In this document: piece after piece, positions 11,367-46,616 of the stretch
How positions within the stretch are numbered: the first letter of the stretch is position 1
Layout: every line of letters begins with the position of its first letter
Source: Leucoraja erinacea
Taxonomy: Eukaryota
Direction of reading: 5' to 3'
DNA length: 64,000 nt
Assembly: GCF_028641065.1 (NCBI RefSeq)
Contig: NC_073414.1
Span: 5,456,001-5,520,000, forward strand
The notes under the pieces: generated by a model
Databases searched by the model: none
Told to the model about the DNA's origin: nothing
The model's input: the letters and a program-made list of their open reading frames with translations, nothing else
Program-made: the position numbers and the translations under genes

Positions 11367-11712
11367 GTGAGTTTCACTCATGTCAATATTGGTACATGGT
11401 GGCACATAATTGGGGAAAGAGAGGTCAATAGACAATAGGTGCAGGAGGAGGCCATTTGGCCCTTCGAGCCAGTACCGCCATTCAATGTGATCATGGCAGA
11501 TCATCCCCAATCAGTACCCCGTTCCTGCCTTCTCCCCATATCCCCTGACTCCGCTATCTTTAAGAGCCCTATCTAGCTCTCTCTTGAAAGCATCCAGAGA
11601 ACCTGCCACCACCGCCCTCTGAGGCAGAGAATTCCACAGACAATTGATGGGGTCTGTACGATTTGTGGGATTTCCCTGGGATCAATCCTGGGAAAAGTAC
11701 GGAGACGGAATG

Positions 11713-12240: not shown

Positions 12241-12250
12241 CTGTTGACAG

Positions 12251-12415
12251 GACGAGATGGACGACTGGATCAAGGCTGCCTCCACAGCCATCGCGGAACA
12301 TGCAGAAATCGCCCAGCTGAGCGGCCAGATCGTCCCGACCACCTCCTCCACCGATGAAGGAAACCCCAAGCGTGACAGCGACCGAAGATTCAGCCTCTTC
12401 GGAAAGAAGAAATGA
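12251..12415 (+). CDS. SPTBN4: betaIV-spectrin last coding exon
   Basis: gacag|GAC; DEMDDWIKAASTAIAEHAEIAQ...PTTSSTDEGNPKRDSDRRFSLFGKKK*; AEHAEIA and PTTSSTDEGNPKR match recalled human SPTBN4. Confidence 0.95.
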   Translation, partial: DEMDDWIKAASTAIAEHAEIAQLSGQIVPTTSSTDEGNPKRDSDRRFSLFGKKK

Positions 12416-17575: not shown

Positions 17576-17583
17576 TATAAATA
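17576..17583 (+). promoter_or_regulatory. TATA box of GPCR A (equivalents at 26109-26116 and 34351-34356)
   Basis: TATAAA 60-80 nt upstream of the ATG in all three GPCR genes. Confidence 0.6.
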
Positions 17584-17636
17584 TAACAGACTGTGAATAC
17601 AGTGTATTTATTGTCCGCTGAAAACGTCCGCACACA

Positions 17637-17706
17637 ATGCACGGACTTCCAAAGATCTTGTTGTTTGCCATCTACTATCCAGTCATTGCAGCCATCGGCA
17701 TTCCTG
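17637..17706 (+). CDS. GPR139-like orphan GPCR copy A, exon 1 (MHGLPKILLFAIYYPVIAAIGIP)
   Basis: ATG about 60 nt after TATAAATA; hydrophobic start of TM1; CCTG|gtaacg, phase 1, joins 19215 to rebuild GIPAN. Confidence 0.85.
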
Positions 17707-19214
17707 GTAACGTATTAACTTTCATTTTCAATCTGCAACATTTTGTGATATACTTGTTCTCTCTTTGGTATTATTAGTTTCTATTAATTGTAGAATCGTG
17801 GCCCATGTTGCTTATGCAGATGACCCTAGAACCGGCATAGAAACAGGCCCTTCGACCCAACTTGCCCATGCTGACCAAGATGCCCCATCTACGCTAGTCT
17901 TACGTTTTGGCCAATATCCCTCTAAACCTTTCCCAACCATGTACCAGAGGATGTAGGTTTAAGATGAAGGGGAAAAGATATGAATCATGAAGGAAAAGAT
18001 TACCCCTCAGAATCCTATTCATATCTAATAATACCAACATGAGAGGAATAGATCGGGTAGATGCACACAGTCTCTTGGCCAGAGTAGGGGAATCGAGGAC
18101 CAGAGGACATAGGTTTAAGATGAAGGGGAAAAGATATGAATAGGATTCTGAGGGGTAACTTTTTCCTTCAAAGGGTGGAGGGTGTATGGAACGAGCTGCC
18201 TGAGGAGGTAGTTGATGCTGGGACTATCCCAACGTTTAAGAAACAGTTAGACAGGTACATGGATAGGACAGGTTTGGAGGGTTATGGACCAAACCCAGGC
18301 AGGTGGGACTAGTGTAGCTGGGACATGTTGGCCGGTGTGGGCAAGTTGGGCCGAAGGGCCTGTTTCCACTGTATCACTCTATGACTCTAATCTTATTATT
18401 CTCCCAGTATCGTTGATTTATTTTAATTAGAAGTTTGTAAGTGAGAGGAGCAGAATTAGGCTCATCAAGTCTACTCCGCCATTTAATCAATGGCTGGTCT
18501 CAATCCCATTCTCCTGCCTTCTCCCCATAACCATTTACACATGTGGACTAATCAAGAATCTATCTATCTCTGCCTTAAATATATCCACGCACTCTCATTC
18601 ACGCACTCTCACTCTCTCATACTCACACTCACACTCACTCTCTCAAACTCACACTCACTCTAATTCTCTCACACTCATGCTCACTCTCATTCCCTCAAAC
18701 TCACACTCACTCTCATTCTCTCATACTCACACTCTCATTCTCTCACACACTCACACTCACATTCTCTCACACACTCACTCGCACTAGCACTCACACACTC
18801 TCATTCTCTCACACACTCATTCTCTCACACTCACTCTCATTCTCTCACACACTCACACGCTCACTCTCATTCTCGTTATCTTACACACTCACACTCGCAC
18901 TCGCACTTGCACTCATTCTCGTTCTCTCACACACTCACACTCACACACTCACACTCGCACTCATTCTCGTTCTCTCACACACTCACACTCACACACTCAC
19001 ACTCGCACTCATTCTCTCACACACTCACACTCACACTCGCACTCTCACTCTCTCACACTCATTCTCACTCTCATTCTCACATTCACTCACATTCACTCAC
19101 ACTCACACTCTCTCACACACACACACTCACACTCACTCTCAAATTCTCTCACACACTCGCACTCACACTCGCACTCACTAGCATGCCCCGCTGCGTGTGT
19201 GTGGTGTCTTGCAG

Positions 19215-20116
19215 CTAACGTGGCGGTGATTTGGATCTTGTGCCGACGCCGGTGTGGGCTATCGGGCTGCATCACCTTGTACCTACTGTCCATGGCAGTG
19301 ACCGATCTGCTGGTGCTGATCACGGCGGTGATCCTGAACCGGGTTGTGGCCATGAACTCCCCGGCCAACCCGCTCACCTTCTCCCCGCTGTGCAACGTCA
19401 ACTTCGTGCTGGTGTTCGCGGTGAGGGACTGCTCCGTCTGGACAACCGTGGTGTTCACCTTCGACCGCTTCGTGGCCATTTGTTGCCACAAACTGAAAGC
19501 CACGTATTGCAGGGAGCGGATAGCAGCCGCCGTGGTCGCCACAGTCTGTGCTCTCAGCTCATTCAAGAACGCATTTCGGTATTTCATGTTTGAGCCCCTT
19601 GCTAAAGGCGAGGCCACTCCGTGCAAAATCAAGCTCTCCTTTTACACCTCGCCCGCCTGGGTGGCCTTTGACTGGATCGACAGCATCCTCACCCCCTGTC
19701 TCCCCTTCGTCTTAATTCTCCTCCTCAATTTCCTGACCGTCCGCCACATTTTAAGGGCGATTTCAACCCGCAGGAAACTCCGGGGCAACGAGGACAGAGA
19801 GGGTCAGAGGGACCCGGAGACTGAGAACCGCAGGAGGTCCATAGTCCTTCTCTTGAGCATCTCAGGTCTCTTCATCCTCCTGTGGCTCCTGGCGTTAATC
19901 ACCTTCCTCTACATCCGCATCGCCAGCGTCACCTACTTCTCCGGCTCCAACTTCAATGAGTCCAACTTCCTCCTGGAAGAAAGTGGCTACATGCTGCAGT
20001 TCCTCTGCTCCTGCGCCAATCCCTTCATCTACGCCGGCACCCAGAATAGATTCAGGGCAGAGCTGAAACTGGGGTTGAAATATCCACTCTCCCTCATTGG
20101 CAAACTGCGGAAATAA
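19215..20116 (+). CDS. GPR139-like orphan GPCR copy A, exon 2 (spliced protein 323 aa)
   Basis: ttgcag|CT; MAVTD (TM2), FDRFVAIC (TM3), LTPCLPF (TM5), NPFIY (TM7); intact to TAA. Confidence 0.9.
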
Positions 20117-21915
20117 ACCAATTAAAAAACAAAACAAACGCAAAAGTGCTGGAGGAATCAGCGCTGGAAGTGGCGCAGCGGTAGAGTTGCTGCCTTAGGG
20201 CCTGTCCTACTTACGCGACCTTCACAGGCGACTGCCCCCACCCGTGTTAGGTCGCCGAAATGTTCAACATGTTGACAATTCAGCGGCGACCAGAAAGACT
20301 CTAAGATTTTTTGGAGACCACTCACCACCATAGGAGACCTCTCATGCCCATACCGCCTGGGTTCGATCCCGACTATGGCTGCTGACTGTACGGAGTTTGC
20401 ACGTTCTCCCCGACACCTGCGTGGGTTTTCTCCGGAGATCTTCGAATTTCCTCCCACACGCTTGGGTAGTTTACACCCCAGCGGTATGAACATTGACTTC
20501 TCCAATTTCAGGTAGTCCCTGCTTCCTCCCTCCTTCCCCTCCCCTTCCCAGCTCTCCCACATCCCACCATCTCCACCTCATCCTTTCTTCTTCCCGCCCC
20601 ACCACCCTCCACCGACATCAGTCTGGAGCAGGGTCACCTATTTCCTTCGCTCCATAGATGCTGCCCTACCCGCTGAGTTTCTCCAGCATTTTTATCTACC
20701 TCCAAAGACGTTACACAGTTTGGTGTATGTGTAAATTGTCCCTAGTGTGTGTTGGGTTGTGTTAATGTGTGGGGATCGCTGGTCGGCACGGACTCGATGG
20801 GCCGAAGGGACTGTTTCTGCGCTGTATCTCTGAACTGAACTAAAAATGATTCCAGCTAATAAAAATAAAAAGGAATCATAACTTAACCACAGATGCTGCC
20901 TGACCTGTTGAGCTCGTGAATGAGTTCATAAGACAAGTTTGTTGCCACATTCATAGGAAACAAACATACTTAGTAATATTGGCCAATTCGGACTTTCTAC
21001 CTCAGTTCAGTTTAGTTTATTGTCACGTGTGTCGAGGTACAGTGAAAAGCTTTTAGATACATAGATACATAGAAAATAGGTGCAGGAGTAGGCCATTCGG
21101 CCCTTCGAGCCTGCACCGCCATTCAATATGATCATGGTTGATCATCCAACTCAGTATCCCATCCCTGCCTTCTCTCCATACACCCTGATCCCTTTAGCCA
21201 CAAGGGCCACATCTAACTCCCTCTTAAATATAGCCAATGAACTGTGGCCTCAACTACCCTCTGTGGCAGAGAGTTTTGTTGTGTGCTAACCAGTCAGCGG
21301 AAAGACAACACATGATTACAATCGAGCCATTCGCAGTGTACAGATACATGATAAGGGAATAACGTTTAGTGCAAGGTAAAGTCCTATCAAGGATAGTCCG
21401 AGGGTCATCAAGGAGGTAGATAACAGTTCAGCACTGCTCCCTGGTTCCTGGAGGAACTATTAAAACTAACAATAATAAAAGGAATAAAAAACAATAAAAA
21501 GCTCCATAGATGCTGCCTCACCCGCTGAGTTTCTCCAGCATTTTTGTCTACCTTCGATTTTTCCAGCATCTGCAGTTCCTTCTTAAACATAATAAAAGGA
21601 GTAGTAATTTAAACAAGCATCCCACATTTTAGTTGTAGCAACAATATTGGACAAGTTCTACCTGTCATGTCCCTATACTACAGAGAGCCACCCCCGCACA
21701 CTAGCAATATCCTACACACACTAGGGACAATTCAGAAATGACAGAAGCCAATTAACCTGCAAACCTGTACGTCTTTGGAGTGTGGGAGGAACCCGGAGCA
21801 CCCGGAGGAAATCCACGCGGTCACAAGGAGAACGTGCAAACTCCGTACAGACAGTACCCGTAGTCGGTATAAGGCAGCAACTCTACCTCTTGGAATAGAT
21901 TAAATGTTTCTTCAT

Positions 21916-22796
21916 AGAAACATAGAAATTAGGTGCAGGAGTAGGCCATTCGGCCCTTCGAGCCAGCACCGCCATTCAATATGATCATGGCTGATCATCC
22001 AACTCAGTATCCCGTACCTGCCTTCTCTCCATACCCCCTGATCCCCCTAGCCACAAGGGCCACATCTAACTCCCTCTTAAATATAGCCAATGAACTGGCC
22101 TCAACCACCCTCTGTGGCAGAGAGTTCCAGAGATTCACCACTCTCTGCGTCAAAAAAGTTCTTCTCATCTCGGTTTTAAAGGATTTCCCCTTTATCCTTA
22201 AGCTGTGACCCCTTGTCCTGGACTTCCCTAACATCGGGAACAATCTTCCTGCATCTAGCCTGTCCAACCCCTTAAGAATTTTGTAAGTTTCTATAAGATC
22301 CCCTCTCAATCTTCTAAATTCTAGAGAGTATAAACCAAGTCTATCCAGTCTTTCTTCATAAGACAGTCCTGACATCCCAGGAATCAGTCTGGTGAACCGT
22401 CTCTGCACTCCCTCTATGGCAATAATGTCCTTCCTCAGATTTGGAGACCAAAACTGTACGCAATACTCCAGGTGTGGTCTCACCAAGACCCTGTACAATT
22501 GCAGTAGAACCTCTCTGCTCCTATACTCAAATCCTTTTGCAATGAAAGCTAACATACCATTCACTTTCTTTACTGCCTGCTGCACCTGCATGCCTACCTT
22601 CAATGACTGGTGTACCATGACACCCAGGTCTCGCTGCATCGCCCCCTTTCCCAATCGGCCACCATTTAGATAATAGTCTGCTTTCCTGTTTTTGCCACCA
22701 AAATGGATAACCTCACATTTATCCACATTATACTGCATCTGCCAAACATTTGCCCACTCACCCAGCCTATCCAAGTCACCCTGCAGTCTCCTAGCA
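21916..22796 (-). mobile_element. Young 5'-truncated CR1 LINE (open RT C-terminal ORF)
   Basis: 265-aa ORF ([37 protein letters not shown]), (TTTCTATG)n tail, TTCAT duplication; empty site at ~30450. Confidence 0.93.
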
Positions 22797-25700
22797 TTCA
22801 TGCTCGAAGAGCAGAGAGCAGATCATTTTCGGGTTGGGGACTGGAGTTAGTGTGCAGCGACATAATCTGAATCAATGGATGGGTGGAAGAAGGTGCTTTA
22901 TATCCATATTTGGCTTGGGTGAATAATTGTAAATTGTCCCTAGTGTGTAGTATAGTGCTCTAGTGTACAGGTTGATCACTGGTCAGCACGGACTCGGTGG
23001 GCCGAAGGGCCTGCTTCCTCGTTATATCTCCAAACTAAACTAACACTAAACAGTAGATAGACACAACAAGCTGGAGTAACTCAGTGGGACAGGCAGCATC
23101 TCTGGTGAGAAGGAATGGGTGACGTTTCGTGTTGAGACCCCTCAGTGTCTATCTTCGATTTAAACCAGCATCTATCTGCAGTTCTTTCTTACACATAAAA
23201 CTAAATAATCAATGTTGGTGGATGTCACAGTGTTTACGTCCTCGTTGGACTCTCTGGTTTCTGTCTGTGGCTGATGTCAAGTACCCGGCTGTCTGCATTA
23301 GGAAGTTTAATTTTGCCCATGTGGTGGTCTATCCACAGAGAGTTGCTGGCTGACTCACAGCGCTAGAGACCCGGGTTCCATCCTGACCACGAGTGCTGTC
23401 TGTACGGAGTTTGCACGTTCTCCCCGTGACCTGCGTGGGTTTTCTCCGGGTGCTCCGGTCTCTGACCACACTCAAAAGACGTGCAGGTTTGTAGGTTAAT
23501 TGCCTTCTGTAAATTTCCCCGATGGAACTAGTGTACGGGTGAATATGCTGGTCGACATGAACTCAGTGTATGACTTTGATTCCTGGTTGTCTGGTTTTGG
23601 AGTAGCATGGATAAATGTATCTCTTACAACGCCTCGACTGCTACGTTTGACTTGAAACATTTATTTTAGTCAAAGCGATTAGAATAATTTAACCGTAAAA
23701 TGGTCTGGTTCATTTTTTTTTTTCTTTTTCTTTTTTTTTTCTGTACAGCACTTTGGTCAGCTTTGGTTGTTTTTTAAGGTGCTTAACAAATAAAGTTATT
23801 ATTATTATTATCTCTAATCGACAGTCTACACTCTTTGTTCTTATTTCAGATTTTCAGCATCTGCGTTAGACACGGAAACAGGCCCTTCGGCCCAATGAGT
23901 CTGTGCCGACCAGCGATCACCCCGTACACTCGCACCATCCTATGCACTAGGGACAACCTACAATTTCCAGAAGCCAATTAACCTACAAACCTGCGCGTCT
24001 TTGATGTGTGGGAGGAAACCGGAGCACCCGGAGAAAACCCACACGGTCAGAGGGAGAATGTATAAACTCTGCGCAGACAGCACCCGTAGTCAGGATTGAA
24101 CCCGGGTCTCCAGCGCTGTGAGGCAGCAACTCTACCGCTGTGCCACGGTGCCAGCGCTTCTGCTGAATTAATTTTGGTTTGCAGTTTAGGGGCACTGACG
24201 TGCCTATAAAAAAAGATTGAAAGGTGGGTACACCAACAGATTCAACCACAGCTTCTACCCTATCAGATTTGTGAATGTTCCTCTCACAGGCCCCCGACCG
24301 CAGGAGAACAAAGAAGGGAAGAAACCAAACTTTGTTTTCGCCTTCCATCACAGTGAGGAATGTGGAGGAGTCACTGTGGTGGATGTTTATGTTAAAATGT
24401 ATTTTGTGTGTCCTGTTGCTTTTTAATGGTATGACTGTATGGCAAATTAAATTCCTCGTATGTTGCAAAATATACTTGGCTAATCAAGTATGATTATGGT
24501 TATTATGATAAGTTAAAGATGAATTTCCAGGATCTTCCAATCTACCTCATTGTGACCTTGCACTTTTTTAAAAATTGCACTTTCTCTGCAGATACAACAC
24601 AATATACTGCTCTCCGTTACTTTTCTCTTTTTGCACAACCTGATGTACCAATGTATAGTTTGATTGTAATCAAGTATGGATGATTTTTGTTATAGCACGC
24701 AAAATAAAGGTTTTCATTGTATCTCGGTACACGTGAATAACAAACTAATACCAATATTGTTACATCTATAATCCATTGGTTCTTCTCACAGTACCAGATC
24801 CTCATGGCTGGACCCAAAGTATTGCCACACAGGGTGGCACGTTGGCACAGCGGTAGAGCTACTGTCTTACTTACTTACTTAACTACCTCCTCTGGCAGCT
24901 CGTTCCATACACCCACCACCACCTTTTGTGTGGAAAAGGTTACCCCTTGGATTCCTATGAAACTGCAGTTTCTTGCGGTTGTGGGCGGAGCTGTTCCCAA
25001 ACCCAGCTGTGATGCGACGTGACAGAATGTTGGGATAATGATGTCCGGATGATGTAATCTGGAGTCGGACCCGAGTCTCTAGCGCTGCAAAGGGCCTGTC
25101 CCACATCGGCTATTTTTAGGCGACTGTCAGCGACTGTCATGGTCGTAGCAGGTCATCGAAAAACCAGTGACTGGACCCCCCCCCTTCGACATGAAATTTG
25201 AAATAGAATCATTACTTTAACAACAAAAAAAACGAAGTCAGCACCAGCTGCAACTTACGTTAACCTGGCTACAACTACGACAGCACCTACGTCACGAGAA
25301 GTCAAGCTATGCTCATTGGCGTCAAACCCACTGTCACCGACTGTCTCCGAAAATCCAGCGGCGACCAGAAGCATGGAGACATAGAAACATAGACAATAGG
25401 TGCAGGAGTAGAGGCCATTCGGCCCTTCGAGCCTGCACCGCCATTCAATATGATCATGTCTGATCATCCAACTCAGTATCCCATCCCTGCCTTCTCTCCA
25501 TACCCCCTGGTCCCTTTAGCCACAAGGGCCACAACTAACTCCCTCTCAAATATAGCCAATGAACTGTGGCCTCAACTATCTTCTGTGGCAGAGAATTCCA
25601 CAGATTCACCACTCTCTGTGTGAAAAATGTTTTTCTCATCTTGGTCCTAAAAGATTTCCCCCTTATCCTTAAACTGTGTGACCCCTTGTCCTGGACTTCC

Positions 25701-26169
25701 CCAACATCGGGAACAATCTTCCTGCATCTAGCCTGTCCAACCCCTTAAGAATTTTGTAAGTTTCTATAAGATCCCCCCTCAATCTTCTAAATTCTAGTGA
25801 GTACAAGCCGAGTCTATCCAGTCTTTCTTCATATGAAAGTCCTGCCATCCCAGGAATCAGTCTGGTGAACCGTCTCTGTACTCCCTCTATGGCAAGAATG
25901 TCTTTCATCAGATTTGGAGACCAAAACTGTACGCAATACTCGTTAAGACTTTTCATACTTTTCTGGGACGATGTGGAAACATATCCACAATTATTCATCA
26001 AAACAATTTTTGGCATCAGCTGGAATAAGGCGCCGGTTTCAATGACTGTAATTAGCGTAAAAACGCAATGATGCCTTCCTGATGTGTTCCCTGGTGAGTG
26101 ATATTGGGTATAAATATAACAGACTGTGAATACAGTGTATTTATTGTCCGCTGAAAACCTCCGCACACA

Positions 26170-26239
26170 ATGCACGGACTTCCAAAGATCTTGTTGTTTG
26201 CCATCTACTATCCAGTCATTGCAGCCATCGGCATTCCTG
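26170..26239 (+). CDS. GPR139-like orphan GPCR copy B, exon 1
   Basis: Same sequence as 17637-17706; TATA box at 26109. Confidence 0.85.
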
Positions 26240-27693
26240 GTAACGTATTAACTTTCATTTTCAATCTGCAACATTTTGTGATATACTTGTTCTCTCTTTG
26301 GTATTATTAGTTTCTATTAATTGTAGAATCGTGGCCCATGTTGCTTATGCAGATGACCCTAGAACCGGCATAGAAACTGGCCCTTCGGCCCAACTTGCCC
26401 ATGCTGACCAAGATGCCCCATCTACGCTAGTCTTACGTTTTGGTCCATATCCCTCTAAACCTTTCCCAACCATGTACCAGAGGATGTAGGTTTAAGGTGA
26501 AGGGGAAAAGATATGAATCATGAAGGAAGAGGTTACCCCTCAGAATCCTATTCATATCTAATAATACTAACACGAGGGGAATAGATCGGGTAGATGCACA
26601 GAGTCTCTTGGCCAGAGTAGGGGAATCGAGGACCAGAGGACATAGGGTTAAGATGAAGGGGAAAAGATATGAATAGGATTCTGAGGGGTAACTTTTTCCT
26701 TCAAAAGGTGGTGGGTGTATGGAACGAGCTGCCTGAGGAGGTAGTTGATGCTGGGACTATCCCAACGTTTAAGAAACAGTTAGACGGGTACATGGATAGG
26801 ACAGGTTTGGAGGGTTATGGACCAAACCCAGGCAGGTGGGACTAGTGTAGCTGGGACACGTTGGCCGGTGTGGGCAAGTTGGGCCGAAGGGCCTGTTTCC
26901 ACTGTATCACTCTATGACTCTAATCTTATTATTCTCCCAGTATCGTTGATTTATTTTAATTAGACGTTTGTAAGTGAGAGGAGCAGAATTAGGCTCATCA
27001 AGTCTACTCCGCCATTTAATCAATGGCTGGTCTCAATCCCATTCTCCTGCCTTCTCCCCATAACCACTCACACATGTGGACTAATCAAGAATCTATCTAT
27101 CTCTGCCTTAAATACATCCACTCACTCTCATTCACTCACACTCACTCTCTCATACTCACACTCACACTCACTCTCTCAAACTCACACTCACACTAATTCT
27201 CTCACACTCACACTCACTCTCATTCCCTCAAACTCACACTCATTCTCTCACACACTCACACTCTCATTCTCTCACACACTCACACTCACATTCTCTCACA
27301 CACTCACACTCGCACTAGCACTCACACACTCATTCTCACACACTCTCACACTCACACTCACTCACTCTCATTCTCTCACACACTCGCACTAGCACTCACT
27401 CACCCTCATTCTCACATCCTCTCACACTCACTCTCACACACTCACACTCACTCTAATTCTCATTCTCTCACACTCACACTCACTCTCATCCTCTCACAAA
27501 TTCACACTAACATTCACTCGCACTCACACTCACTCTCATTCTCACATTCTCTCACACTCACACTCATACTCTCTCACACTCACACTCGCACTCATTCTCA
27601 TTCTCTCACACACACACACACACACACACTCACACTCACACTCACACTCACACTCACTAGCATGCCCCGCTGCGTGTGTGTGGTGTCTTGCAG

Positions 27694-28595
27694 CTAACGT
27701 GGCGGTGATTTGGATCTTGTGCCGACGCCGGTGTGGGCTATCGGGCTGCATCACCTTGTACCTACTGTCCATGGCAGTGACCGATCTGCTGGTGCTGATC
27801 ACGGCGGTGATCCTGAACCGGGTTGTGGCCATGAACTCCCCGGCCAACCCGCTCACCTTCTCCCCGCTGTGCAACGTCAACTTCGTGCTGGTGTACGCGG
27901 TGAGGGACTGCTCCGTCTGGACAACCGTGGTGTTCACCTTCGACCGCTTCGTGGCCATTTGTTGCCACAAACTGAAAGCCACGTATTGCAGGGAGCGGAT
28001 AGCAGCCGCTGTGGTCGCCACAGTCTGTGCTCTCAGCTCATTCAAGAACGCATTCTGGTATTTCATCTTTGAGCCCCTTGCTAAAGGCGAGGCCACTCCG
28101 TGCAAAATCAAGCCCTCCTTTTACACCTCGCCCGCCTGGGTGGCCTTTGACTGGATCGACAGCATCCTCACCCCCTGTCTCCCCTTCGTCTTAATTCTCC
28201 TCCTCAATTTCCTGACCGTCCGCCACATTTTAAGGGCGATTTCAACCCGCAGGAAACTCCGGGGCAACGAGGACAGAGAGGGTCAGAGTGACCCGGAGAC
28301 TGAGAACCGCAGGAGGTCCATAGTCCTTCTCTTGAGCATCTCAGGTCTCTTCATCCTCCTGTGGCTCCTGGTGTTAATCACCTTCCTCTACATCCGCATC
28401 GCCAGCGTCACCTACTTCTCCGGCTCCAACTTCAATGAGTCCAACTTCCTCCTGGAAGAAAGTGGCTACATGCTGCAGTTCCTCTGCTCCTGCGCCAATC
28501 CCTTCATCTACGCCGGCACCCAGAATAGATTCAGGGCAGAGCTGAAACTGGGGTTGAAATATCCACTCTCCCTCATTGGCAAACTGCGGAAATAA
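27694..28595 (+). CDS. GPR139-like orphan GPCR copy B, exon 2 (323 aa spliced)
   Basis: Near-identical paralogue of copy A (6 amino-acid differences), intact ORF. Confidence 0.9.
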
Positions 28596-31500
28596 ACCAA
28601 TTCAAAAAAAAAAAAAAAAACGCAAAAGTGCTGGAGGAATCAGCGCTGGAAGTGGCACAGCGGTAGAGTTGCTGCCTTAGGGCCTGTCCTACTTACGCGA
28701 CCTTCACAGGCGACTGCCCCCACCCGTGTTAGGTCGCCGAAATGTTCAACATGTTGACAATTCAGCGGCAACCAGAAAGACTCTAAGATTTTTTGGAGAC
28801 CTCTCATAACCATAGGAGACCTCTCATGACCATAGGAGACCTCTCACAACCATAGGAGACCTCTCACAACCATAGGAGACCTCTCATGACCATACCGCCT
28901 GGGTTCGATCCCGACTATGGCTGCTGACTGTACGGAGTTTGCACGTTCTCCCCGACACCTGCGTGGGTTTTCTCCGGAGATCTTCGAATTTCCTCCCACA
29001 CGCTTGGGCAGTTTACACCCCAGCGGTATGAACATTGACTTCTCCAATTTCAGGTAGTCCTTGCTTTCTCCCTCCTTCTCCTCCCCTTCCCAGCTCTCCC
29101 ACATCCCACCATCTCCACCTCATCCTTTCTTCTTCCCGCCCCACCACCCTCCACCGACATCAGTCTGGAGCAGGGTCACCTATTTCCTTCGCTCCATAGA
29201 TGCTGCCCTACCCGCTGAGTTTCTCCAGCATTTTTATCTACCTCCAAAGACGTTACACAGTTTGGTGTATGTGTAAATTGTCCCTAGTGTGTGTCGGGCA
29301 GTGTTAATGTGTGGGGATCGCTGGTTGGCACGGACTCGATGGGCCGAAGGGACTGTTTCTGTGCTGTATCTCTGAACTGAACTAAAAATGATTCCAGCTA
29401 ATAAAAATAAAAAGGAATCATAACTTAACCACAGATGCTGCCTGACCTGTTGAGCTCGTGAATGAGTTCATAAGACAAGTTTGTTGCCACATTCATAGGA
29501 AACAAACATACTTAGTAATATTGGCCAATTCGGACATTCTACCTCAGTTCAGTTTAGTTTATTGTCACGTGTGTCGAGGTACAGTGAAAAGCTTTTAGAT
29601 ACATAGATACATAGAAAATAGGTGCAGGAGTAGGCCATTCAGCCCTTCGAGCCTGCACCGCCATTCAATATGATAATGGCTGATCATCCAATTCAGTATC
29701 CTGTACCTGCCTTCTCTCCATACACCCTGATCCCTTTAGCCACAAGGGCCACATCTAACTCCCTCTTAAATATAGCCAATGAACTATGGCCTCAACTACC
29801 CTCTGTGGCAGAGAGTTTCGTTGTGTGCTAACCAGTCAGCGGAAAGACAATACATGATTACAATCGAGCCATTCAGTGTACAGATACATGATAAGGGAAT
29901 AACGTTTAGTGCAAGGTAAAGTCCGATCAAGGATAGTCCGAGGATCATCAAGGAGGTAGATAATAGTTCAGCACTGCTCCCTGGTTCCTGGAGGAACTAT
30001 TAAAACTAACAATAATAAAAGGAATAAAAACAATAAAAAGCTCCATAGATGCTGCCTCACCCGCTGAGTTTCTCCAGCATTTTTGTCTACCTTCGATTTT
30101 TCCAGCATCTGCAGTTCCTTCTTAAACATAATAAAAGGAGTAGTAATTTAAACAAGCATCCCACATTTTAGTTGTAGCAACAATAATGGACAAGTTCTAC
30201 CTGTCATGTCCCTAGACTACAGAGAGCCACCCCCGCACACTAGCACTATCCTACACACACTAGGGACAATTCAGAAATGACAGAAGCCAATTAACCTGCA
30301 AACCTGCACGTCTTTGGAGTGTGGGAGGAAACCGGAGCACCCGGAGGAAATCCACGCGGTCATAAGGAGAACATGCAAACTCTGTACAGACAGCACCCGT
30401 AGTCGGTATAAGGCAGCAACTCTACCTCTTGGAATAGATTAAATGTTTCTTCATGCTCGAAGAGCAGAGAGCAGATCATTTTCCGGTTGGGGACTGGAGT
30501 TAGTGTGCAGCGACATAATCTGAATCAATGGATGGGTGGAAGAAGGTGCTTTATATCCATATTTGGCTTGGGTGAATAATTGTAAATTGTCCCTAGTGTG
30601 TAGTATAGTGCTCTAGTGTACAGGTTGATCACTGGTCAGCACGGACTCGGTGGGCCGAAGGGCCTGCTTCCTCGTTATATCTCCAAACTAAACTAACACT
30701 AAACAGTAGATAGACACAACAAGCTGGAGTAACTCAGTGGGACAGGCAGCATCTCTGGTGAGAAGGAATGGGTGACGTTTCGTGTTGAGACCCCTCAGTG
30801 TCTATGTTCGATTTAAACCAGCATCTATCTGCAGTTCTTTCTTACACATAAAACTAAATAAACAATGTTGGTGGATGTCACAGTGTTTACGTCCTCGTTG
30901 GACTCTCTGGTTTCTGTCTGTGGCTGATGTCAAGTACCCGGCTGTCTGCATTAGGAAGTTTAATTTTGCCCATGTGGTGGTCTATCCACAGAGAGTTGCT
31001 GGCTGACTCACAGCGCCAGAGACCCGGGTTCCATCCTGACCACGAGTGCTGTCTGTACGGAGTTTGCACGTTCTCCCCGTGACCTGCGTGGGTTTTCTCC
31101 GGGTGCTCTGGTCTCTGACCACACTCAAAAGACGTGCAGGTTTGTAGGTTAATTGCCTTCTGTAAATTTCCCCGATGGAACTAGTGTACGGGTGAATATG
31201 CTGGTCGACATGAACTCAGTGTATGACTTTGATTCCTGGTTGTCTGGTTTTGGAGTAGCATGGATAAATGTATCTCTTACAACGCCTTGACTGCTACGTT
31301 TGAGTTGAAACATTTATTTTAGTCAAAGCGATTAGAATAATTTAACCGTAAAATGGTCTTGTTCATTTATTTTTTTCTTTTTCTTTTTTTTTTCTGGACA
31401 GCACTTTGGTCAGCTTTGGTTGTTTTTTAAGGTGCTTAACAAATAAAGTTATTATTATTATTATTATCTCTAATCGACAGTCTACACTCTTTGTTCTTAT

Positions 31501-32714
31501 TTCAGATTTTCAGCATCTGTGTTAGACGTGGAAACAGGCCCTTCGGCCCAATGAGTCTGTGTCGACCAGCGATCACCCCGTACACTCGCACCATCCCATG
31601 CACTAGGGACAACCTACAATTTCCAGAAGCCAATTAACCTACAAACCTGCGCGTCTTAGATGTGTGGGAGGAAACGGAGCACCCGGAGAAAACCCACACG
31701 GTCAGAGGGAGAACGTATAAACTCTGCGCAGACAGCACCCGTAGTCAGGATTGAACCCGGGTCTCCGGCGCTGTGAGGCAGCAACTCTACCGCTGTGCCA
31801 CTGTGCCACCGCTTCTGCTGAATTAATTTTGGTTTGCAGTTTAGGGGCACTGACGTGCCTATAAAAAAAGATTGAAAGGTGGGTACACCAACAGATTCAA
31901 CCACAGCTTCTACCCTATCAGATTTGTGAATGTTCCTCTCACAGGCCCCCGACCGCAGGAGAACAAAGAAGGGAAGAAACCAAACTTTTTTTTCGCCTTC
32001 CATCACAGTGAGGAATGTGGAGGAGTCACTGTGGTGGATGTTTATGTTAAAATGTGTTTTGTGTGTCCTGTTGCTTTTTAATGGTATGACTGTATGGCAG
32101 ATTAAATTCCTCGTATGTTGCAAAATATACTTGGCTAATAAAGTATGATTATGGTTATTATGATAAGTTAAAGATGAATTTCCAGGATCTTCCAATCTAC
32201 CTCATTGTGACCTTGCACTTTTTTAAAATTGCACTTTCTCTGCAGATACAACACAATATACTGCTCTCCGTTACTTTTCTCTTTTTGCACAACCTGATGT
32301 ACCAATGGATAGTTTGATTGTAATCAAGTATGGATGATTTTTGTTATAGCACGCAAAATAAAGGTTTTCATTGTATCTCGGTACACCTGAATAACAAATT
32401 AATACCAATATTGTTACATCTATAATCCATTGGTTCTTCTCACAGTACCAGATCCTCATGGCTGGACCCAAAGTGTTGCCACACAGGGTGGCACGTTGGC
32501 ACAGCGGTAGAGCTACTGTCTTACAGTGGCCATTCGGCCCATCAAGTCTATTCAATCATGGGCGATCAATTGAATAAATGAGATGGTCACTAGGCAGCAT
32601 CTCCCCCTCCCCCCCGTTCCGTCCCGACCCCCCGGGAAACTGAAGGGAGCGACAATCAACTGCCACGGATACAAATAATGTCATACGCAAGAAAGGGCAG
32701 ATGCTGGTTGACAA

Positions 32715-32805
32715 AAAGTGAACACTCAGTGCTGGAGTAACACAAAGTGAACACTCAGTGCTGGAGTAACTCAAAGTGAACACTCAGTGCTGGAGTAACA
32801 CAAAG
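32715..32805 (+). repeat. 29-bp tandem repeat, 3 copies
   Basis: AAAGTGAACACTCAGTGCTGGAGTAACAC at period 29. Confidence 0.85.
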
Positions 32806-34430
32806 ACGCTGCAGAATTTTGGAAACATCATCCCGTCACCCATTCCTTCTCTCCAGAGATGCTGCCTGCCCGCTGAGTTAAAGAGTGCCCACCATAAACT
32901 CACGGGCTACTTGCGTTCTTAGAACGAGTTTAAAAGCTTTAAATGTTTAATTTGACACGTGGACATTTTTCATCGTGTTGAAAGATTTTTACGAGTTAAC
33001 AAGTTTCTTGAGTTCCTGCCGTTAGCATTATGAGTCGCTAAGGAAACTTGAACGGAAACCTCTGGAGACTTTGCGCCCCACCCAAGGTTTCCGTGCGGTT
33101 CCCGGAGGTTGCAGGTGGTTGCCGGAGGTTGCAGGTAGTGGAGGCAGGTAGGGAGACTGACAAAAACCTCCGGGAACCGCATGGAAACCTTGGGTAGGGG
33201 GCGCAAAGTCTCCAGAGGTTTCCTGCAGGTTTCCTAAGTGGGACAGGGGCATTAGTAGTCCACGAACTCTACCGCTACCCTCAACCCTCAAATCCTAGTC
33301 TTGTTGTAACGATATCAAGAAATGAGCAGAGCCAAGCACAGGCAAGACACAGGGGTAAACTCAAAAGGCTTTCACTAACAGCTGGGGTAACTCTATGGGT
33401 CAGGCAGCATTTCGGGTCGAGACCCTTCCTCAGACTGCGTCAGGGGAAAGGGATACGAGAGAGATTGACAGTAACGTAGAGAGATGTAGAACAAAGATAT
33501 GCAAAAAAAGATGGGCTTTCACCTAGCACACAGTAAACAATGGCCTGCTGATTTTATCATCGTTAGTTTTTGCATATGTTTCATTCATTTGTTCTATATC
33601 TCTCTACTGGAGTTTAGAAGGATGAGCGGGGGTCTTATGGAAACATATAAAATTATAAAAGGACTGGACAAGCTAGATGCAGGAAAAATGTTCCCAATGT
33701 TGGGCAAGTCCAGAACCAGGGGCCACACAGTCTTAGAATAAAGGGGAGGCCATTTAAGACTGAGGTGAGAAAAAATGTTTTTACCCAGAGAGTTGTGAAT
33801 CTTTGGAATTTGTGGAGTTCCCTGCCACAGAGGGCAGTGGAGGCCAAATCACTGGATGGATTTAAGAGAGAGTTAGATAGAGCTCCAGGGCGTTGCAGAA
33901 TCAAGGGATATGGGGAGAAGGCAGGCACGGGTTATTGATAGGGGATAATCAGCCATGATCAAAATGAATGGCGGTGCTCGCTCATTGAAGGGCCGAATGG
34001 CCTCCTCCTATTTTCTATGTTTCTTACATCACCATCTATATCTCTTGTTTCCCTTTGCCCCCGACTCTCCGTCTGAGGAAGGGTCTCGACCCGAAACGTT
34101 ACCCATTCCTTATCTCCAGTGATGCTGCCTGACCCTCTGAGTCACCCCAGCTTTTAGTGTCATCTCCCAGATCTCATCCTCCAGGTTTTACTTTTCACCC
34201 CTCCTCTGCCAATTTCCAATTGAATTCGAATTTTCTAATTAGCACAAGAGGGATTTAACTTCCCTGTTGCAATATGTTCAGTTTTTTTTTAATGCAATGA
34301 TTCAGGCAGTGTTGCAACCTCGACACCTCCCCGGAGATCAGCAGTGTGTGTATAAATGAAACGCTCGGTGACTGTGTGAGATCCAAGTGATCGAGTCCAA
34401 CACAAGGTCTCTCGTCTCCCCACACGGAAC

Positions 34431-34497
34431 ATGCATTTCCCAGTTCAATTCGCTGCGAAAGTCTGGTACACAGTCATCGCTTTTCTTGGTGTCCCTG
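34431..34497 (+). CDS. GPR139-like orphan GPCR C, exon 1 (MHFPVQFAAKVWYTVIAFLGVP)
   Basis: TATAAA at 34351, ATG, CCTG|gtaagt phase 1; same layout as exon 1 of A and B. Confidence 0.85.
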
Positions 34498-35934
34498 GTA
34501 AGTGAGTCTGTGGATGGGAACAATTTGTGTTTCTTGCAGAATCTACATATAATTCTTTGTTTATGTTTCTAGTGAGTTTGTACGAGTCTGTGTGGCTGTG
34601 ATGCTGTTGCAAGCAAGATTTCCATTGTACCTGCACCTCACATACTTGTGCATTGGACTATAAACTCAACTTGTCTTCACAGATGCTGTTTGACCTGCCA
34701 AGTACATCCAGCGCTCTGTTTGTGTTTTCGATTGCAGCATCTTCAGTTACTTCAATTTCTTGGACAATATATCATTGAATAGACAATAGACAATAGGTGC
34801 AGGAGTAGGCCATTTGGCCCTTCGAGCCAGCATCGCCATTCAATGTGATCATGGCTGATCATCCCCAATCAGTACCCCGTTCCTGCCTTCTCCCCATATC
34901 CCATGACTCTGCTATCTTTAAGAGCCCTATCTAGCTCTCTCTTGAAAGCATCCAGAGAACCGGCCTCCACCACCCTCTGAGGCAGAGAATTCCACAGACT
35001 CACCACTCTCTGTGAGAAAAAGTGTTTCCTCGTCTCCGTTCTAATATAGGAGGAACAGGAATAGGAAGGGGGGAACGGGGTGAGAGGGAAATGGGGAAAT
35101 TGGTGGAGGCCGGTTCTCTGGATACTTTCAAGAGAGAGCTAGATAGGGCTCTTAAAAATAGCGGAGTCAGGGGATATGGGGAGAAGGCAGGAACGGGGTA
35201 CTGATTGGGGATGATCACATTGAATGGCGGTACTGGCTCGTAGGGCCGAATGGCCTACTCCTGCACCTATTGTCTATTGTAATTACCTGGCTTCTCCCAT
35301 AACCCTTGACACCTGTTCTAATCAAGAATGTATCTATCTCCTCCTTAAAAATATCCACTGACTTGGCCTCCATGCCCTCTGTGGCAATGAGGTCCACAGA
35401 TTAACTACCCTCTGGCTAAGGAAGTTCCTGCTCACCTCCTTTCTAAAAGAGCGCCCTTTAATTCTGTGGCTGCGACCTCTGGTCCTAGACTCTCCCACCA
35501 GTGGAAACATCCTCTCCACATCCGTGCTATCTGTGCCTTGAGCAGTGATCATGTTGCCCCTTGGTTAAATTTTATAAGGCTTGGGGAAGATTTATTCCAC
35601 ATTTTCACACAACATAAATTGTCCCCTCTCCAACCGTTATCAAAATAATTTTACCTTTATACGGTGGAACGGACTTGACGACAAACAGGGACTTAAATTG
35701 TTGAAATTCTCAGATTCTATTTTGCATTTTTTTTACTAGTTTAAGGGGTTTTTGTTTCATAGTTTTTTCTCTTTTGTGCTTTTTTTCCTTTTTTTTAAAA
35801 TATATATAAGTTTTCTTTAAAACATTTAACTATATTTACATAGAGACCGGGAGGTCTATATTCAATGTATATTTTGATACTGGGCTCATATTTAGGTTAT
35901 ACATATTATTAATGTAATCCTGATCCCTATGGTA

Positions 35935-36690
35935 AAACCTCCTTCTTTCATCTCCGCAACATTGCCAAACTCAGACCCTCTCTCACACCTCCCGCTGCTG
36001 AAAGACTCATCCATGCCTAAATCTCCTTCCGACGGGACTATTGCAACTCACTTCTCCTTGGCATCAGCTCCACCTACATCAACCAATTCCAACTGGTCCA
36101 GAACGCAGCCGCCCGACTCATCACCCACACCAAATCCTGGCATCACATCACTCCAGTCCTCAAACAACTTCACTGGCTTCCCATCTCCCACCGGATCACC
36201 TACAAAATCCTGATCCTCACCTACATAGCCCTCCACCATCTGGCCCCCCATATCTCACTGACCTCCTCTCCCCCTACCAACCCTCACGGTCCCTCAGATC
36301 CACATCAGCCGGTCTCCTGTCCATCCACAAGTCCAACCTCCGCAGTTTAGGGGACAGAGCCTTCTCCAGGGCAGCTCCCAGGCTCTGGAACTCCCTCCCC
36401 CAACTGATCCGCAATTCCGTGTCCCTCACCATCTTCCAGTCCCGCCTCAAGACCCATCTCTTCACCTCTGCCTATCCTTAGCCCCACGTCCCCTTCCCTT
36501 TTCATCTGTGCTTGAATTGCCTCATATTGTGTTTTGTATTGAATTATGTCTTTACTTTGTGTACTAGTCATGTCTGTATTATTTATTTCATTCCCCTTAC
36601 ATGTTTTTCCTCTACCTGCTAAATTTTTGTAAGGTGTCCTTGAGACTCTTGAAAGGCGCCCATAAATAACATTTATTATTATTATTATTA
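35935..36690 (+). mobile_element. L2 LINE 3' fragment
   Basis: QLVQNAAARL, LHWLP, DRAFSRAAPRLWNSLP, FQSRLKTHLF motifs across frames; (ATT)n tail. Confidence 0.85.
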
Positions 36691-36794
36691 TGTATCAATA
36701 CCATTGTTATTTTTATCATTATTCTTTTTGTTTTTGGAACAAAAGCTAATAAAAAGATTTTAAAAGTAAGTGATCATGTTGTGATGATGTGATG

Positions 36795-37582
36795 ATGATC
36801 CACTTTGGTGGCATAAACAGGAAAGTAGACTATTATCTGAATGGTGGCCGATTAGGAAAAGGGGAGATGCAACGAGACCTGGGTGTCATGGTACACCAGT
36901 CATTGAAAGTAGGCATGCAGGTGCAGCAGGCAGTGAAGAAAGCGAATGGTGTGTGTTAGCATTCATAGCAAAAGGATTTGAGTATAGGAGCAGGGAGGTT
37001 CTACTGCAGTTGTACAGGGTCTTGGTGAGACCACACCTGGAGTATTGTGTACAGTTTTGGTCTCCTAATCTGAGGAAAGACATTCTTGCAGAGAAGGTTC
37101 ACCAGACTGATCCCTGGGATGGCAGGACTTTCATATGAAGAAAGATTGGATAGACTCGGCTTGTACACTCTAGAATTTAGAAGATTGAGGGGGGATCTTA
37201 TAGAAATTTACAAAATTCTTAAGGGGTTGGACAGGCTAGATGCAGGAAGATTATTCCCGGTGTTGGGGAAGTCCAGAACAAGGCTTCACACAGTTTAAGG
37301 ATAAGAGGGAAGTCTTTTAGGACTGAGATGAGAAAATCATTTTTTACACAGAGTGGTGAATCTGTGGAATTCTCCGCCACAGAAGGTGGTTGAGGCCACA
37401 GTTCATTGGCTAGATTTAAGAGGGAGTTAGATGTGGCCCCTGTGGCTAAAGGGATCAGGGGGTATGGAGAGAGGCAGGGATGGGATATTGATCTGGATGA
37501 TCAGCATTGATCATATTGAATGGCGGTGCAGGCTCAAAGGGCCGAATGGCCTACTCCTGCACCTATTGTCTATGTTTCTATG
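36795..37582 (+). mobile_element. CR1 3' fragment (frameshifted) in the GPCR C intron
   Basis: Same RT tail and 3' hairpin; further copies near 4155-4590, 6200-6606, 10546-10992, 16841-17408, 25375-25941, 33608-34025, 38719-39261, 42247-42660, 56008-56383, 58595-59120, 62016-62588. Confidence 0.9.
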
Positions 37583-37705
37583 ATAAGGGAATAACCTCGA
37601 TTGAAATCATGTGTTGTTTTTCTGTTGACTTGATAGCACGCAACAAAAGCTTTTCACGTTTCTATGTTTCTGTGTGACTTCTCCCTCTCTTGTCTTGCTC
37701 CACAG

Positions 37706-38613
37706 TGAACTTGGTGGCGATCGTGATCCTGTCCCGTGGCAAGTGTGGCCTCTCCACCTGCACCACCCTCTACCTGGTGTCCATGGCAGCAGCGGACCTG
37801 TTGACCATCATCACCCAGGTGATACTGAGGCGCATCAACATTTATTACTTCCCCTGGAATTTCCTGCGCACCTTCCCCGTGTGCCGGGTGCTGTATGTCC
37901 TTCGGCACATGGCCAGGGGCTGCTCTGTCTGGTTCACCGTCACCTTCACCTTTGATCGCTACGTGGCCATTTGTTGCCAGAAGCTAAAGACTCAATACTG
38001 CAGCAGGAAAACCGCCATGGTGGTTCTGACAGCAACCGGCATTCTGGTCACCGCAAAGAACATCCCAAAGTACTTCATACTGAAACCCTGGGTCATCATC
38101 GACGGCACTCCTTGGCTGTGCATCTTCAAGGCGGGCTATTTCTCCGAGCCTGAATGGGTGGGATTTGACTGGTTTGATTCCATTACTACCCCATTGCTTC
38201 CATTTGGGTTAATCTTGATGTTCAACTTCCTGACAGTCAAGCACATCTTGGTTGCCAGCCGGGTGCGGAAGGCGCTGAGAGGTCAGAGCAGTGGAGACAA
38301 AGGCAGTGACCCTGAGATGGAGAGCCGTAGGAGGTCTATAATCCTGCTCTTTACCTTGTCTGGCAGCTTCATCCTCTTGTGGCTCTTCTACGTCATAGAT
38401 TCCTTCTTTTATTCTATTGCAGGGATAGCCACCAGCCAGTATAATGATGCCCAGTACATCTTTCGCTACATTAGTGTTATGCTATTACACTTGAATTGTT
38501 GTACCAACACATTTATCTACGCTGTGACTCAGTCCAACTTCAGAGAACAGGTGAAGACCATGGCGACATATCCTGTAACTTCAATTATTCGATTCATTAA
38601 ACAAAAAAAATAA
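37706..38613 (+). CDS. GPR139-like orphan GPCR C, exon 2 (324 aa spliced)
   Basis: ccacag|TG rebuilds GVPVN; MAAAD, FDRYVAICC, DPEMESRRRSIILL, NTFIY; divergent paralogue of A/B. Confidence 0.9.
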
Positions 38614-43253: not shown

Positions 43254-43424
43254 CTACTTCTCAAAATGGTCCATGGGATAATGCTCGCCGTACATCTTCA
43301 GGTGCCTCTGCAGCGCCTCCTGCTGTTTCTGCAGCAAGACCGGCATTTCTTCGTACACGTCCGTGAATAAGTAGTCCACCTTGGGCTTCAGCTCACGTTC
43401 GGCCTCCTCAAAGGCTTCCATCAC
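43254..43424 (-). CDS. BCKDHA: BCKDHA exon 9, last coding exon (CDS total 1320 nt, 439 aa)
   Basis: [15 protein letters not shown]...[16 protein letters not shown]; all nine exons join in frame. Confidence 0.95.

Positions 43425-46415: not shown

Positions 46416-46616
<201 letters not shown>

Follow-up and report, generated by a model that had tools for sequence, protein, structure and literature searches.

GPR139 and GPR142 are vertebrate orphan receptors for L-Trp and L-Phe. The vertebrate OR, TAAR, V1R, V2R and taste repertoires occur in tandem clusters; their pockets vary while the cytoplasmic face stays constant, and OR and TAAR proteins have a short N-terminus, like the three receptors described here. 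Clustered, lineage-specific expansions are also found in nematodes (the srw birth-and-death GPCR family) and in Aplysia (the AcCR candidate chemoreceptors, which are expressed in sensory organs). Myosuppressin and FMRFamide receptors are relatives of the srw genes, for which sensing of environmental peptides has been proposed. Non-mammalian orphan clades beside GPR139/142 have been surveyed in coelacanth, gar and teleosts, where 'GPR210A/B' and a third unnamed set adjoin them (Rinne et al. 2019, PMC6504862); no shark was included ('shark' has 0 occurrences) and no expansion is reported. Cartilaginous fishes have been described as both GPCR-poor and olfactory-receptor-poor (PMC8455134).

Here we describe genes A, B and C in a 64-kb window of the little skate (Leucoraja erinacea) genome. 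They share with the vertebrate chemoreceptor repertoires membership in a large clustered family with pocket-focused variability, and differ from them in ancestry and in having one conserved TM1 intron. The likeness to srw and AcCR lies in clustered, lineage-specific expansion, although both are of independent origin, and A, B and C have no match to Pfam Srw (PF10324). That domain is precomputed on 1/120 listed matches; in one Atlas cluster the share is 42%.

Three intact genes between a beta-spectrin gene and BCKDHA

The window contains three intact class A GPCR genes of two exons each, all on the + strand and encoding proteins of 323, 323 and 324 aa:

1..12412, + strand: beta-spectrin gene, 3′ part, left neighbour (spectrin repeat, PH exon; last exon ends at 12412)
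17576..17582, + strand: TATA box of gene A, from sequence; ATG 61 nt downstream
17637..17706, + strand: gene A coding exon 1, 70 nt (spliced product equals NCBI P0392)
19215..20116, + strand: gene A coding exon 2, 902 nt, Asn1.50 to stop (sequence, Pfam, match to P0392)
26109..26115, + strand: TATA box of gene B, from sequence
26170..26239, + strand: gene B coding exon 1, 70 nt, identical to that of A (sequence)
27694..28595, + strand: gene B coding exon 2 (sequence)
34351..34357, + strand: TATA box of gene C, from sequence
34431..34497, + strand: gene C coding exon 1, 67 nt, 22 codons plus 1 nt (match to Rhinoraja P0001)
37706..38613, + strand: gene C coding exon 2, 908 nt (sequence, Pfam, database matches)
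43257..59919, − strand: BCKDHA, right neighbour (one exon by search, others by eye; last exon end read by eye as 43257)

The layout given in a preliminary description of this DNA, a TATA box, a first coding exon of 67–70 nt ending in phase 1 before the TM1 Asn and a second exon of about 905 nt (902, 902 and 908 nt), is borne out in all three genes. Exon 1 of A consists of 23 codons plus 1 nt and encodes a short N-terminus and the outer half of TM1. All introns are GT-AG, in phase 1 and inside the codon preceding Asn1.50, and each frame has a single terminal stop after splicing. The spliced product of A is letter-for-letter identical to the NCBI Leucoraja erinacea protein P0392, and exon 1 of C matches Rhinoraja P0001 at 20/22 residues and also matches the N-terminus of a Narcine protein, both relatives being independently annotated. 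Matches to a spectrin repeat, a PH exon and a BCKDHA exon confirm the neighbours that the preliminary description had named, the left one being, we presume, SPTBN4 rather than another beta-spectrin. No fourth copy or fragment was found in the window by tblastn with eight relatives as queries, and no repeats were found upstream of gene A. Elsewhere the window holds assembly gaps and an apparent local duplication (58372–59550).

All three proteins are class A (rhodopsin-like) GPCRs. Each matches Pfam 7tm_1 (E 1e-25 to 5e-24, 85–91 bits vs a cut-off of 30.5) and no other family, including Srw and the vertebrate OR, TAAR, V1R, V2R and taste families. The predicted structure of A has seven helices and helix 8 (pLDDT 84.6) and aligns with class A receptors at Z 27–29 (VIA). 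Asn1.50, Asp2.50, the Cys3.25–ECL2 disulfide, D-R-Y/F, Pro5.50 and NxxxY are present in A, in C and in 198–208 of 208 family members, while Pro6.50 and Trp4.50 are missing from the family. The N-terminus is only about 23 residues long and has no glycosylation site. The NCBI label of gene A, 'P2Y purinoceptor 8-like', can be rejected: A nests among 'GPR139-like' shark proteins (63–69% identity, 99/99), and there is no P2Y receptor among its 11 solved-structure matches.

Genes A and B lie in two units arranged head to tail:

16328..24870, + strand: tandem duplication unit 1, containing A (self-BLAST)
24866..32524, + strand: tandem duplication unit 2, containing B (self-BLAST)
24866..24870, no strand: duplication junction, 5-bp microhomology CTTAC without assembly gap (sequence)
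21910..22796, − strand: LINE-like 3′ fragment, present only in unit 1 (self-BLAST)

The fragment, which we take to be LINE-like and for which Pfam gave no match, has a copy of about 99% identity near 60851–61667. A and B are the product of a recent head-to-tail duplication: their proteins are identical at 317/323 residues, and non-coding segments of unit 2 diverge from unit 1 by 1.4–2.3%. A and C are far more distant (149/319 residues, 47%), and their split predates that of sharks and rays. The contrast between a very recent pair and an old paralogue, as first described, stands. Exon 2 of B differs from that of A at six amino-acid and two silent codons. Coding DNA is less divergent than the flanks (8/972 vs 109/5761, P = 0.016), the ratio of non-synonymous (6/732) to synonymous (2/237) changes is about 1 and uninformative, and 3/6 amino-acid substitutions affect residues of the pocket (3.33, 4.60 and 6.51; P = 0.023, post hoc).

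It is quite improbable that the assembly has set two haplotypes of a single gene side by side, in which case B would not be a gene apart from A. The units are about 98% identical over 7.6 kb, the LINE fragment is confined to one of them, and the gaps and apparent duplication elsewhere in the window would fit such an assembly; however, the A/B junction is gapless, it is a distinct 5-bp microhomology junction, and the flanks differ (by the 1.4–2.3% above). Should A and B nevertheless be haplotypes, the family-level result would be unaffected.

Family extent and relation to GPR139 and GPR142

Sequence comparison places A, B and C in a very large elasmobranch family. Searches matched 2,269 database clusters at E ≤ 1e-10, and the 235 distinct matches listed include 117 from the horn shark Heterodontus francisci, 37 from Pristiophorus and 26 from Heptranchias; those analysed were taken from the head of two search lists and do not form a random sample. 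About 40/120 listed rows, counted by eye, lie on a single 59.5-Mb contig. The near-full-length filter was failed by 73/271 proteins, some of them probably broken genes. These counts, with the A/B units, agree with the large lineage expansion and tandem turnover proposed initially, and no description of the family was found in the open-access literature, in keeping with its being called uncharacterised. The term chondrichthyan fared less well: the expansion is elasmobranch, all named expanded members among the matches listed being elasmobranch, and with no holocephalan among those 235 the wider term is unproven, while the origin is older, as follows. Orthogroup OG0000365 of a whale-shark supplement (157 proteins, 12 taxa, 7tm_1) might be the same family; nothing links the two.

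In our trees, which contain no true GPR139/142 sequence, the sister of the family is an amphibian clade, Y (support 100/99 under two models), and the alternative grouping of Y with a further clade, X, is rejected (p-AU 0.0014). Clade X, of jawed vertebrates (Latimeria, teleosts, sturgeon, amphibians, reptiles and sharks), falls outside the family plus Y. Because an amphibian gene is its sister, the family's lineage is older than chondrichthyans, and its origin is not chondrichthyan. Clade Y comprises 14 listed rows from 14 species, one per species ('probable GPR139', e.g., P0236 of Pleurodeles). It shares Asp-Pro-Glu before TM6 with the window family but is only ~28–31% identical to the window proteins and has a nearly invariant pocket. 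Clade X may be one of the sets beside GPR139/142 in the PMC6504862 survey; it includes shark proteins distinct from the window genes, which therefore do not belong to it. The G-x-P-x before Asn1.50 is absent from 28/84 X models, 14 of which, as printed, show unrelated sequence at that place, a pattern consistent with an exon edge there; 0/14 clade Y proteins show such a sign.

Profile searches point to GPR139 as the nearest solved receptor, in line with the resemblance noted earlier: the family profile scores 54.4 bits against GPR139 and 45.9 against the next, and the X/Y profile 147.6 vs 89.6 bits. For a Latimeria clade X protein, GPR139 is the sole solved match at E ≤ 1e-10. Single-sequence searches are less specific, with mu-opioid ranked above GPR139 for C, GPR139 not found for A at E 0.001, and no solved structure matched at E ≤ 1e-22 by the outgroup P0249. 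Fold searches with the A model did not separate GPR139 (7vug; Foldseek rank 18, VIA Z 27.2 vs a best of 28.7) from other peptide receptors. In the ESM Atlas, C retrieved only 'probable GPR139' and FMRFamide-receptor-like clusters, and a spectrin fragment gave no match.

A, B and C nonetheless appear to be distant relatives rather than orthologues of GPR139, as the preliminary description had supposed. Like GPR139/GPR142 they have two coding exons (the number given in a GPR139 review), and Asn5.58 and Trp6.48 are common to GPR139 and the family. However, the family has lost Pro6.50, exceeds 100 copies in one species, and in the window proteins is only 21–22% identical to human GPR139, compared with 70% between human and zebrafish GPR139. 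Of six agonist-pocket residues (E3.32, F3.33, H5x43, W6.48, R6.51 and N7x38), A keeps two, B and C one each and no family member among 208 more than three; the Trp/Phe-sensing pocket of GPR139 is not retained.

Pocket variability and candidate functions

A new result is that, among paralogues, the pocket is about twice as variable as other helix positions: across 208 family proteins, TM entropy is 1.86 bits at pocket positions (set by generic class A numbering, not model coordinates) vs 0.93 bits elsewhere (P = 3e-7), entropy not being a test of positive selection. Also new, the reverse holds in X and Y (pocket/other ratio 0.77 in X, which has similar overall divergence, and 0.28 in Y) and among batoid orthologues of C, where the pocket is better conserved than the other positions. 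Inside single-species subclades the ratios are 2.66, 1.86 and 2.37. Compared only with extracellular-half helix positions, the pocket excess is 1.3–1.7-fold, significant in two of three subsets (P = 0.007, 0.045 and 0.19). Within TM3, variability peaks at 3.28/29, 3.32/33 and 3.36. Among the 107 horn-shark proteins analysed, no two have the same 27-residue pocket string. The pocket of C changes little between skate, electric ray, stingray and devil ray, with 33–37/37 residues kept in three batoid orthologues vs 16/37 shared with A. Net pocket charge ranges from −7 to +4 in the family, from −2 to 0 in X, and is +3 in Y (14/14); it is +4 in C (several Arg/His/Lys) and −2 and −3 in the aromatic pockets of A and B. 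Asp2.50, Asp3.49, Arg3.50, Asn5.58 and Arg6.30 are invariant (208/208). A pocket variable among paralogues and constant among orthologues suggests a ligand-diversified repertoire, supporting the likeness to receptor repertoires first drawn from tandem turnover.

On balance, A, B and C are probably working members of a shark and ray class A GPCR birth-and-death family that may well serve as a repertoire for sensing outside chemicals. The genes, of two exons each, were copied in tandem, as the A/B units illustrate; the intracellular face is conserved, and the pocket varies from one paralogue to another. Each paralogue would bind its own small soluble ligand, presumably within the helix bundle because the N-terminus is so short and lacks a glycosylation site. 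The charge of its pocket predicts an anionic ligand for C, and those of A and B, being acidic and aromatic, predict a cationic or basic-peptide ligand. By analogy with GPR139, all may couple to a common G protein, probably Gq/11 or Gi. The least certain step is the role itself, which might be sensing of environmental, dietary, conspecific or microbial chemicals in sensory or barrier tissue; such an origin would parallel that of nematode srw, thought to derive from neuropeptide receptors. No GPCR occurs among the top 50 genes of a catshark library from brain plus olfactory tissue, weak evidence against this role as known olfactory receptors are missing too. More tentatively, the family could be an unrecognised major vertebrate chemosensory class, with >100 genes in some elasmobranchs and sparse expression in olfactory or other sensory neurons, its GPR139-related gene having stayed single-copy in amphibians and disappeared, it seems, from most bony vertebrates.

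An immune repertoire would account just as well for the rapid tandem turnover and the variable pocket; its receptors, on leukocytes or epithelia, would recognise peptides and metabolites that stem from microbes or from damage, as in the mammalian FPR and MRGPR expansions. Cartilaginous fishes lack MAS1/MRGPR-type receptors according to PMC8455134, leaving such a niche, but the profile searches give GPR139 and no chemoattractant receptor as the closest solved relative, and we consider this role rather unlikely; it partly overlaps with sensing of external chemicals. An endogenous signalling role, in which the receptors would bind peptides or metabolites made by the animal itself and would be subfunctionalised among tissues, as for GPR139 and MIP/FMRFamide receptors, would accord with ancestry in the GPR139/142–MIP-R–FMRFa-R group, with the stable pocket of C and with peptide receptors as fold-search matches. 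We regard it as unlikely given the distinct pockets of the horn shark, since we know of no vertebrate peptide family that would need ~107 of them, and given that nematode peptide-receptor genes, unlike srw, are stable 1:1 families. Largely neutral amplification, with most copies redundant or decaying, is very improbable: the locus is repeat-rich, the A/B junction lies in a short repeat, some filtered-out proteins are probably broken and the A/B substitution ratio is near 1, yet signalling motifs are invariant, pockets are conserved between orthologues as they diverge between paralogues, and A/B coding DNA is less divergent than its flanks.

With at least 117 distinct proteins in a single shark, the family, which carries a wrong automatic name, calls into question the view of cartilaginous fishes as GPCR-poor and olfactory-receptor-poor. 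It may have been overlooked because gene-family scans discard families with >100 copies in any species. If chemosensory, the family would be the vertebrate counterpart of srw, a possibly overlooked route of chemical detection in sharks and rays, and would help explain why their chemical senses are keen although they have very few olfactory receptors of the classical kind. Tissue expression and ligands can be tested directly in the little skate, a laboratory model; A with its acidic pocket, C with its basic one and the single-copy sister gene of amphibians make a ready comparison. The family may also shed light on the ancestry of GPR139, a drug target.

Two further signals did not hold up. An invariant Asp 5.42, seen in a 26-row alignment and considered as a family-wide amine anchor, is present in only 118/208 proteins of the wider set. 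An acceleration specific to the A lineage is significant for A itself (51:13 to 61:13), but two of three batoid controls are faster too (33:8 and 39:11; the third 24:15), and the speed-up is probably a general batoid rate effect.

Structure of the genes and of the A/B duplication

A, B and C, three same-strand (+) two-exon class A GPCR genes at 17576–38613, each have a TATA box 61–80 nt upstream of the ATG, a first coding exon of 67–70 nt, a GT-AG phase 1 intron within the codon preceding Asn1.50 and a second exon of 902–908 nt. Reading the window sequence confirmed the shared layout given in the preliminary description (TATA box, 67–70-nt exon 1, phase 1 intron, ~905-nt exon 2), and the genes are intact as described there, with spliced frames of 323, 323 and 324 residues in which Pfam 7tm_1 is the sole Pfam match. 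Since an NCBI Leucoraja erinacea protein (working label P0392, NCBI name "P2Y purinoceptor 8-like") is 100% identical to spliced A, that gene model has independent automatic support. Relatives of C occur in Rhinoraja (91% identity) and Narcine (79%), and the N-terminus is common to both and C. The cluster is intergenic, with a beta-spectrin gene (end 12412), which we take to be SPTBN4, on one side and BCKDHA (end 43257) on the other.

A and B lie in head-to-tail units:

16328–24870, unit 1, carrying gene A
24866–32524, unit 2, carrying gene B

The junction is gap-free with 5-bp microhomology, and a LINE-like fragment in unit 1 is absent from unit 2. A and B differ at 8/972 coding sites versus 109/5,761 sites in four non-coding segments (Fisher P = 0.016). 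The head-to-tail arrangement and small coding difference bear out the earlier view of a very recent pair; that A and B are instead two haplotypes assembled in tandem is improbable. Six codon changes alter a residue and two are silent, a ratio (~1) that says little. Pocket positions of the generic numbering (3.33, 4.60 and 6.51) account for three of the six (binomial P = 0.023, post hoc), and five are extracellular (P = 0.08). Because the B branch is shorter in the tree, A is the changed copy.

An elasmobranch expansion and its relatives

With C exon 2 as query, 2,269 clusters (defined at 90% identity) passed E ≤ 1e-10 out of 3,818 candidates, and a mixed profile with A as its lead sequence gave 2,138 matches out of 7,999. 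Both totals combine species, and isoforms, broken genes or outside relatives may be among them. The matches listed from both searches comprise 240 rows (235 distinct, 234 with names; species labels hand-copied). Of the lineage-expanded chondrichthyan family proposed earlier, the large expansion stands; its membership, among the 234 named matches listed, is entirely elasmobranch (17 species), with no holocephalan. Lower bounds among these matches are at least 117 in Heterodontus francisci, 37 in Pristiophorus, 26 in Heptranchias and 2 in Leucoraja. Automatic names are mostly "probable GPR139", with P2Y8-, GPR15-, CCR3-, V2R- and capa-receptor-like also present. Four models of 543–569 aa (P0385, P0386, P0387, P0389) score higher than single receptors and are probably annotation fusions of neighbouring tandem copies. 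A clusters with shark proteins at 63–69% identity, apart from the clade that contains C; the A/C split is therefore older than the shark–ray split, and C is the old paralogue it was taken to be.

An exhaustive search yielded 96 representatives at E ≤ 1e-30 plus a tail of full-length proteins at 25–34% identity. Once tail proteins were named (120 of 187 matches listed), two further clades, X and Y, could be recognised outside the expansion. Among the matches listed, X spans coelacanth, sturgeon, teleosts, amphibians, turtles, squamates and three sharks, in most cases with a single protein per species, and Y consists of 14 rows, each from a different amphibian species; these 120 of 187 include no mammal or bird. 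In a 64-row tree, 41 family rows form one clade (99/92) with Y as sister (100/99), and a 24-row mixture-model tree supports family + Y (100/99) and the family alone (92/90) and rejects X + Y (p-AU 0.0014); both trees contain long branches and unnamed outgroups and leave out true GPR139/142. X (P0227, P0282, P0285, P0347 and others) is a conserved orphan GPCR labelled "probable GPR139/142", with Arg6.51 kept in 106/106 proteins; two X models carry the name TMEM183A isoforms, hinting that TMEM183A is a genomic neighbour. Y (P0236 and a subset of P0361–P0383) is an orphan amphibian GPCR, sister of the shark family, with an almost invariant basic pocket and Asn2.50 and Ser1.50 in 14/14, and is a good single-copy handle for a ligand search.

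The GPR139 link is drawn from profiles: the family profile scores 54.4 bits to GPR139 versus 45.9 for the next receptor, and that of X/Y and kin 147.6 versus 89.6, GPR139 first. Single-protein queries from the window did not rank GPR139 top. Window proteins share 21–22% identity with human GPR139, whereas human and zebrafish GPR139 share 70%, and of six GPR139 agonist residues A keeps two and B and C one each (zebrafish figure and residues from the available part of PMC7318219); by these measures, and as expected, the window genes are not GPR139 orthologues. The accessible text of PMC6504862 describes three orphan sets beside GPR139/142 in a survey without sharks, and parts of PMC12208981 and PMC8514136 give background on the GPR139/142–MIP-R–FMRFa-R group.

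We found no description of the expansion in the literature covered (Creative Commons PMC papers and bioRxiv). Neither GPR139 nor "receptor 139" is mentioned in the body of PMC11979771, PMC8455134, PMC10115646, PMC10620051, PMC11406177 or PMC12361510, or in the readable supplementary files of PMC8455134, PMC12361510 and PMC10115646. The expansion is easy to see in RefSeq, so other workers may already be aware of it. A, B and C belong to a large elasmobranch repertoire of receptors that is mis-annotated and apparently undescribed. It adds a new vertebrate example to a known pattern, in which a peptide-receptor-like gene gives rise to a birth-and-death family. Comparable cases, from excerpts of the sources, are the nematode srw family (PMC2576165) and the Aplysia AcCR candidate chemoreceptors (PMC2700072); the literature covered also includes PMC11526382 and PMC12294341.

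Pocket variation and candidate ligands

We aligned 208 of 235 family matches, leaving out 27 longer than 400 aa, together with 106 proteins of X and 14 of Y, numbering positions from class A anchors, with 37 pocket positions picked beforehand from general knowledge. Mean family entropy is 1.86 at pocket versus 0.93 at other transmembrane (TM) positions (P = 3e-7), and 1.68 versus 0.82 in horn shark only (107 of 117 proteins). The values are 0.77 versus 0.99 in X (P = 0.08), where mean identity is similar (0.62 vs. 0.63–0.66), and 0.13 versus 0.47 in Y. The excess also holds inside subclades (ratios 2.66, 1.86 and 2.37), falling to 1.69, 1.33 and 1.32 (P = 0.007, 0.045 and 0.19) against other extracellular-half helix positions only, a comparison that gives 0.69 for X and 0.30 for Y, both below 1. 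TM3 variability has its maxima on the pocket side, every 3–4 residues. The cytoplasmic face is fixed, with five positions invariant in 208/208, and an N-glycosylation sequon occurs in 1 of 133 normal-length N-termini. The pocket of C matches Rhinoraja, Narcine and Hypanus at 37/37, 33/37 and 33/37 positions, and A at 16/37; that of A matches two shark orthologues at 26–27/37, not above other TM sites. Net charge over 27 core positions is +4 in C, −2 in A and −3 in B, and ranges from −7 to +4 in the family (207/208 rows), from −2 to 0 in X (104/106) and is +3 in Y (14/14).

A, B and C are intact class A receptors with tandem birth, paralogue-specific pockets and shared signalling motifs. Different paralogues probably bind different small ligands, and we infer that the family would couple to one common G protein; the primary coupling of GPR139 is Gq/11 (available part of PMC7318219), which bears on the family by analogy only. 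More speculatively, the ligand of C and those of A and B might be opposite in charge. In the least certain step, the ligands would be external and the expressing cells sensory or barrier cells, an overall reading that we favour slightly; true use in sensory neurons is doubtful. Sensing by immune cells seems unlikely, endogenous signalling somewhat more so, and neutral amplification of the family very improbable. These gradings of mechanism and rivals are judgements.

Repeats and assembly features

Additional features of the window are:

60263–60367, + strand, EXOSC5/RRP46 first exon, head-to-head with BCKDHA
21910–22796, LINE-like 3′ fragment copy (example)
36787–37582, LINE-like 3′ fragment copy (example)
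52232–52833, LINE-like 3′ fragment copy (example)
60851–61667, LINE-like 3′ fragment copy (example)

The EXOSC5/RRP46–BCKDHA pairing is presumably also present at human 19q13.2. Two N gaps in BCKDHA intron 1 (58372–58564 and 59303–59550; region 58200–59620) have near-identical flanks, which look like an assembly duplication. Many copies of the one LINE-like 3′ fragment occur window-wide, and their 87–99% identity suggests recent activity. Directly 3′ of the stop, A has ATTAAA (20117–20130) and B has ATTCAA and then an extended run of A (28596–28625), so that 3′ end formation may differ between the two. Degenerate long (CACT/CA)n microsatellites lie at 18570–19180, 27105–27660 and 13126–13743; in A and B the tract stops ~35 nt upstream of a splice acceptor whose pyrimidine tract is weak and GT-rich.
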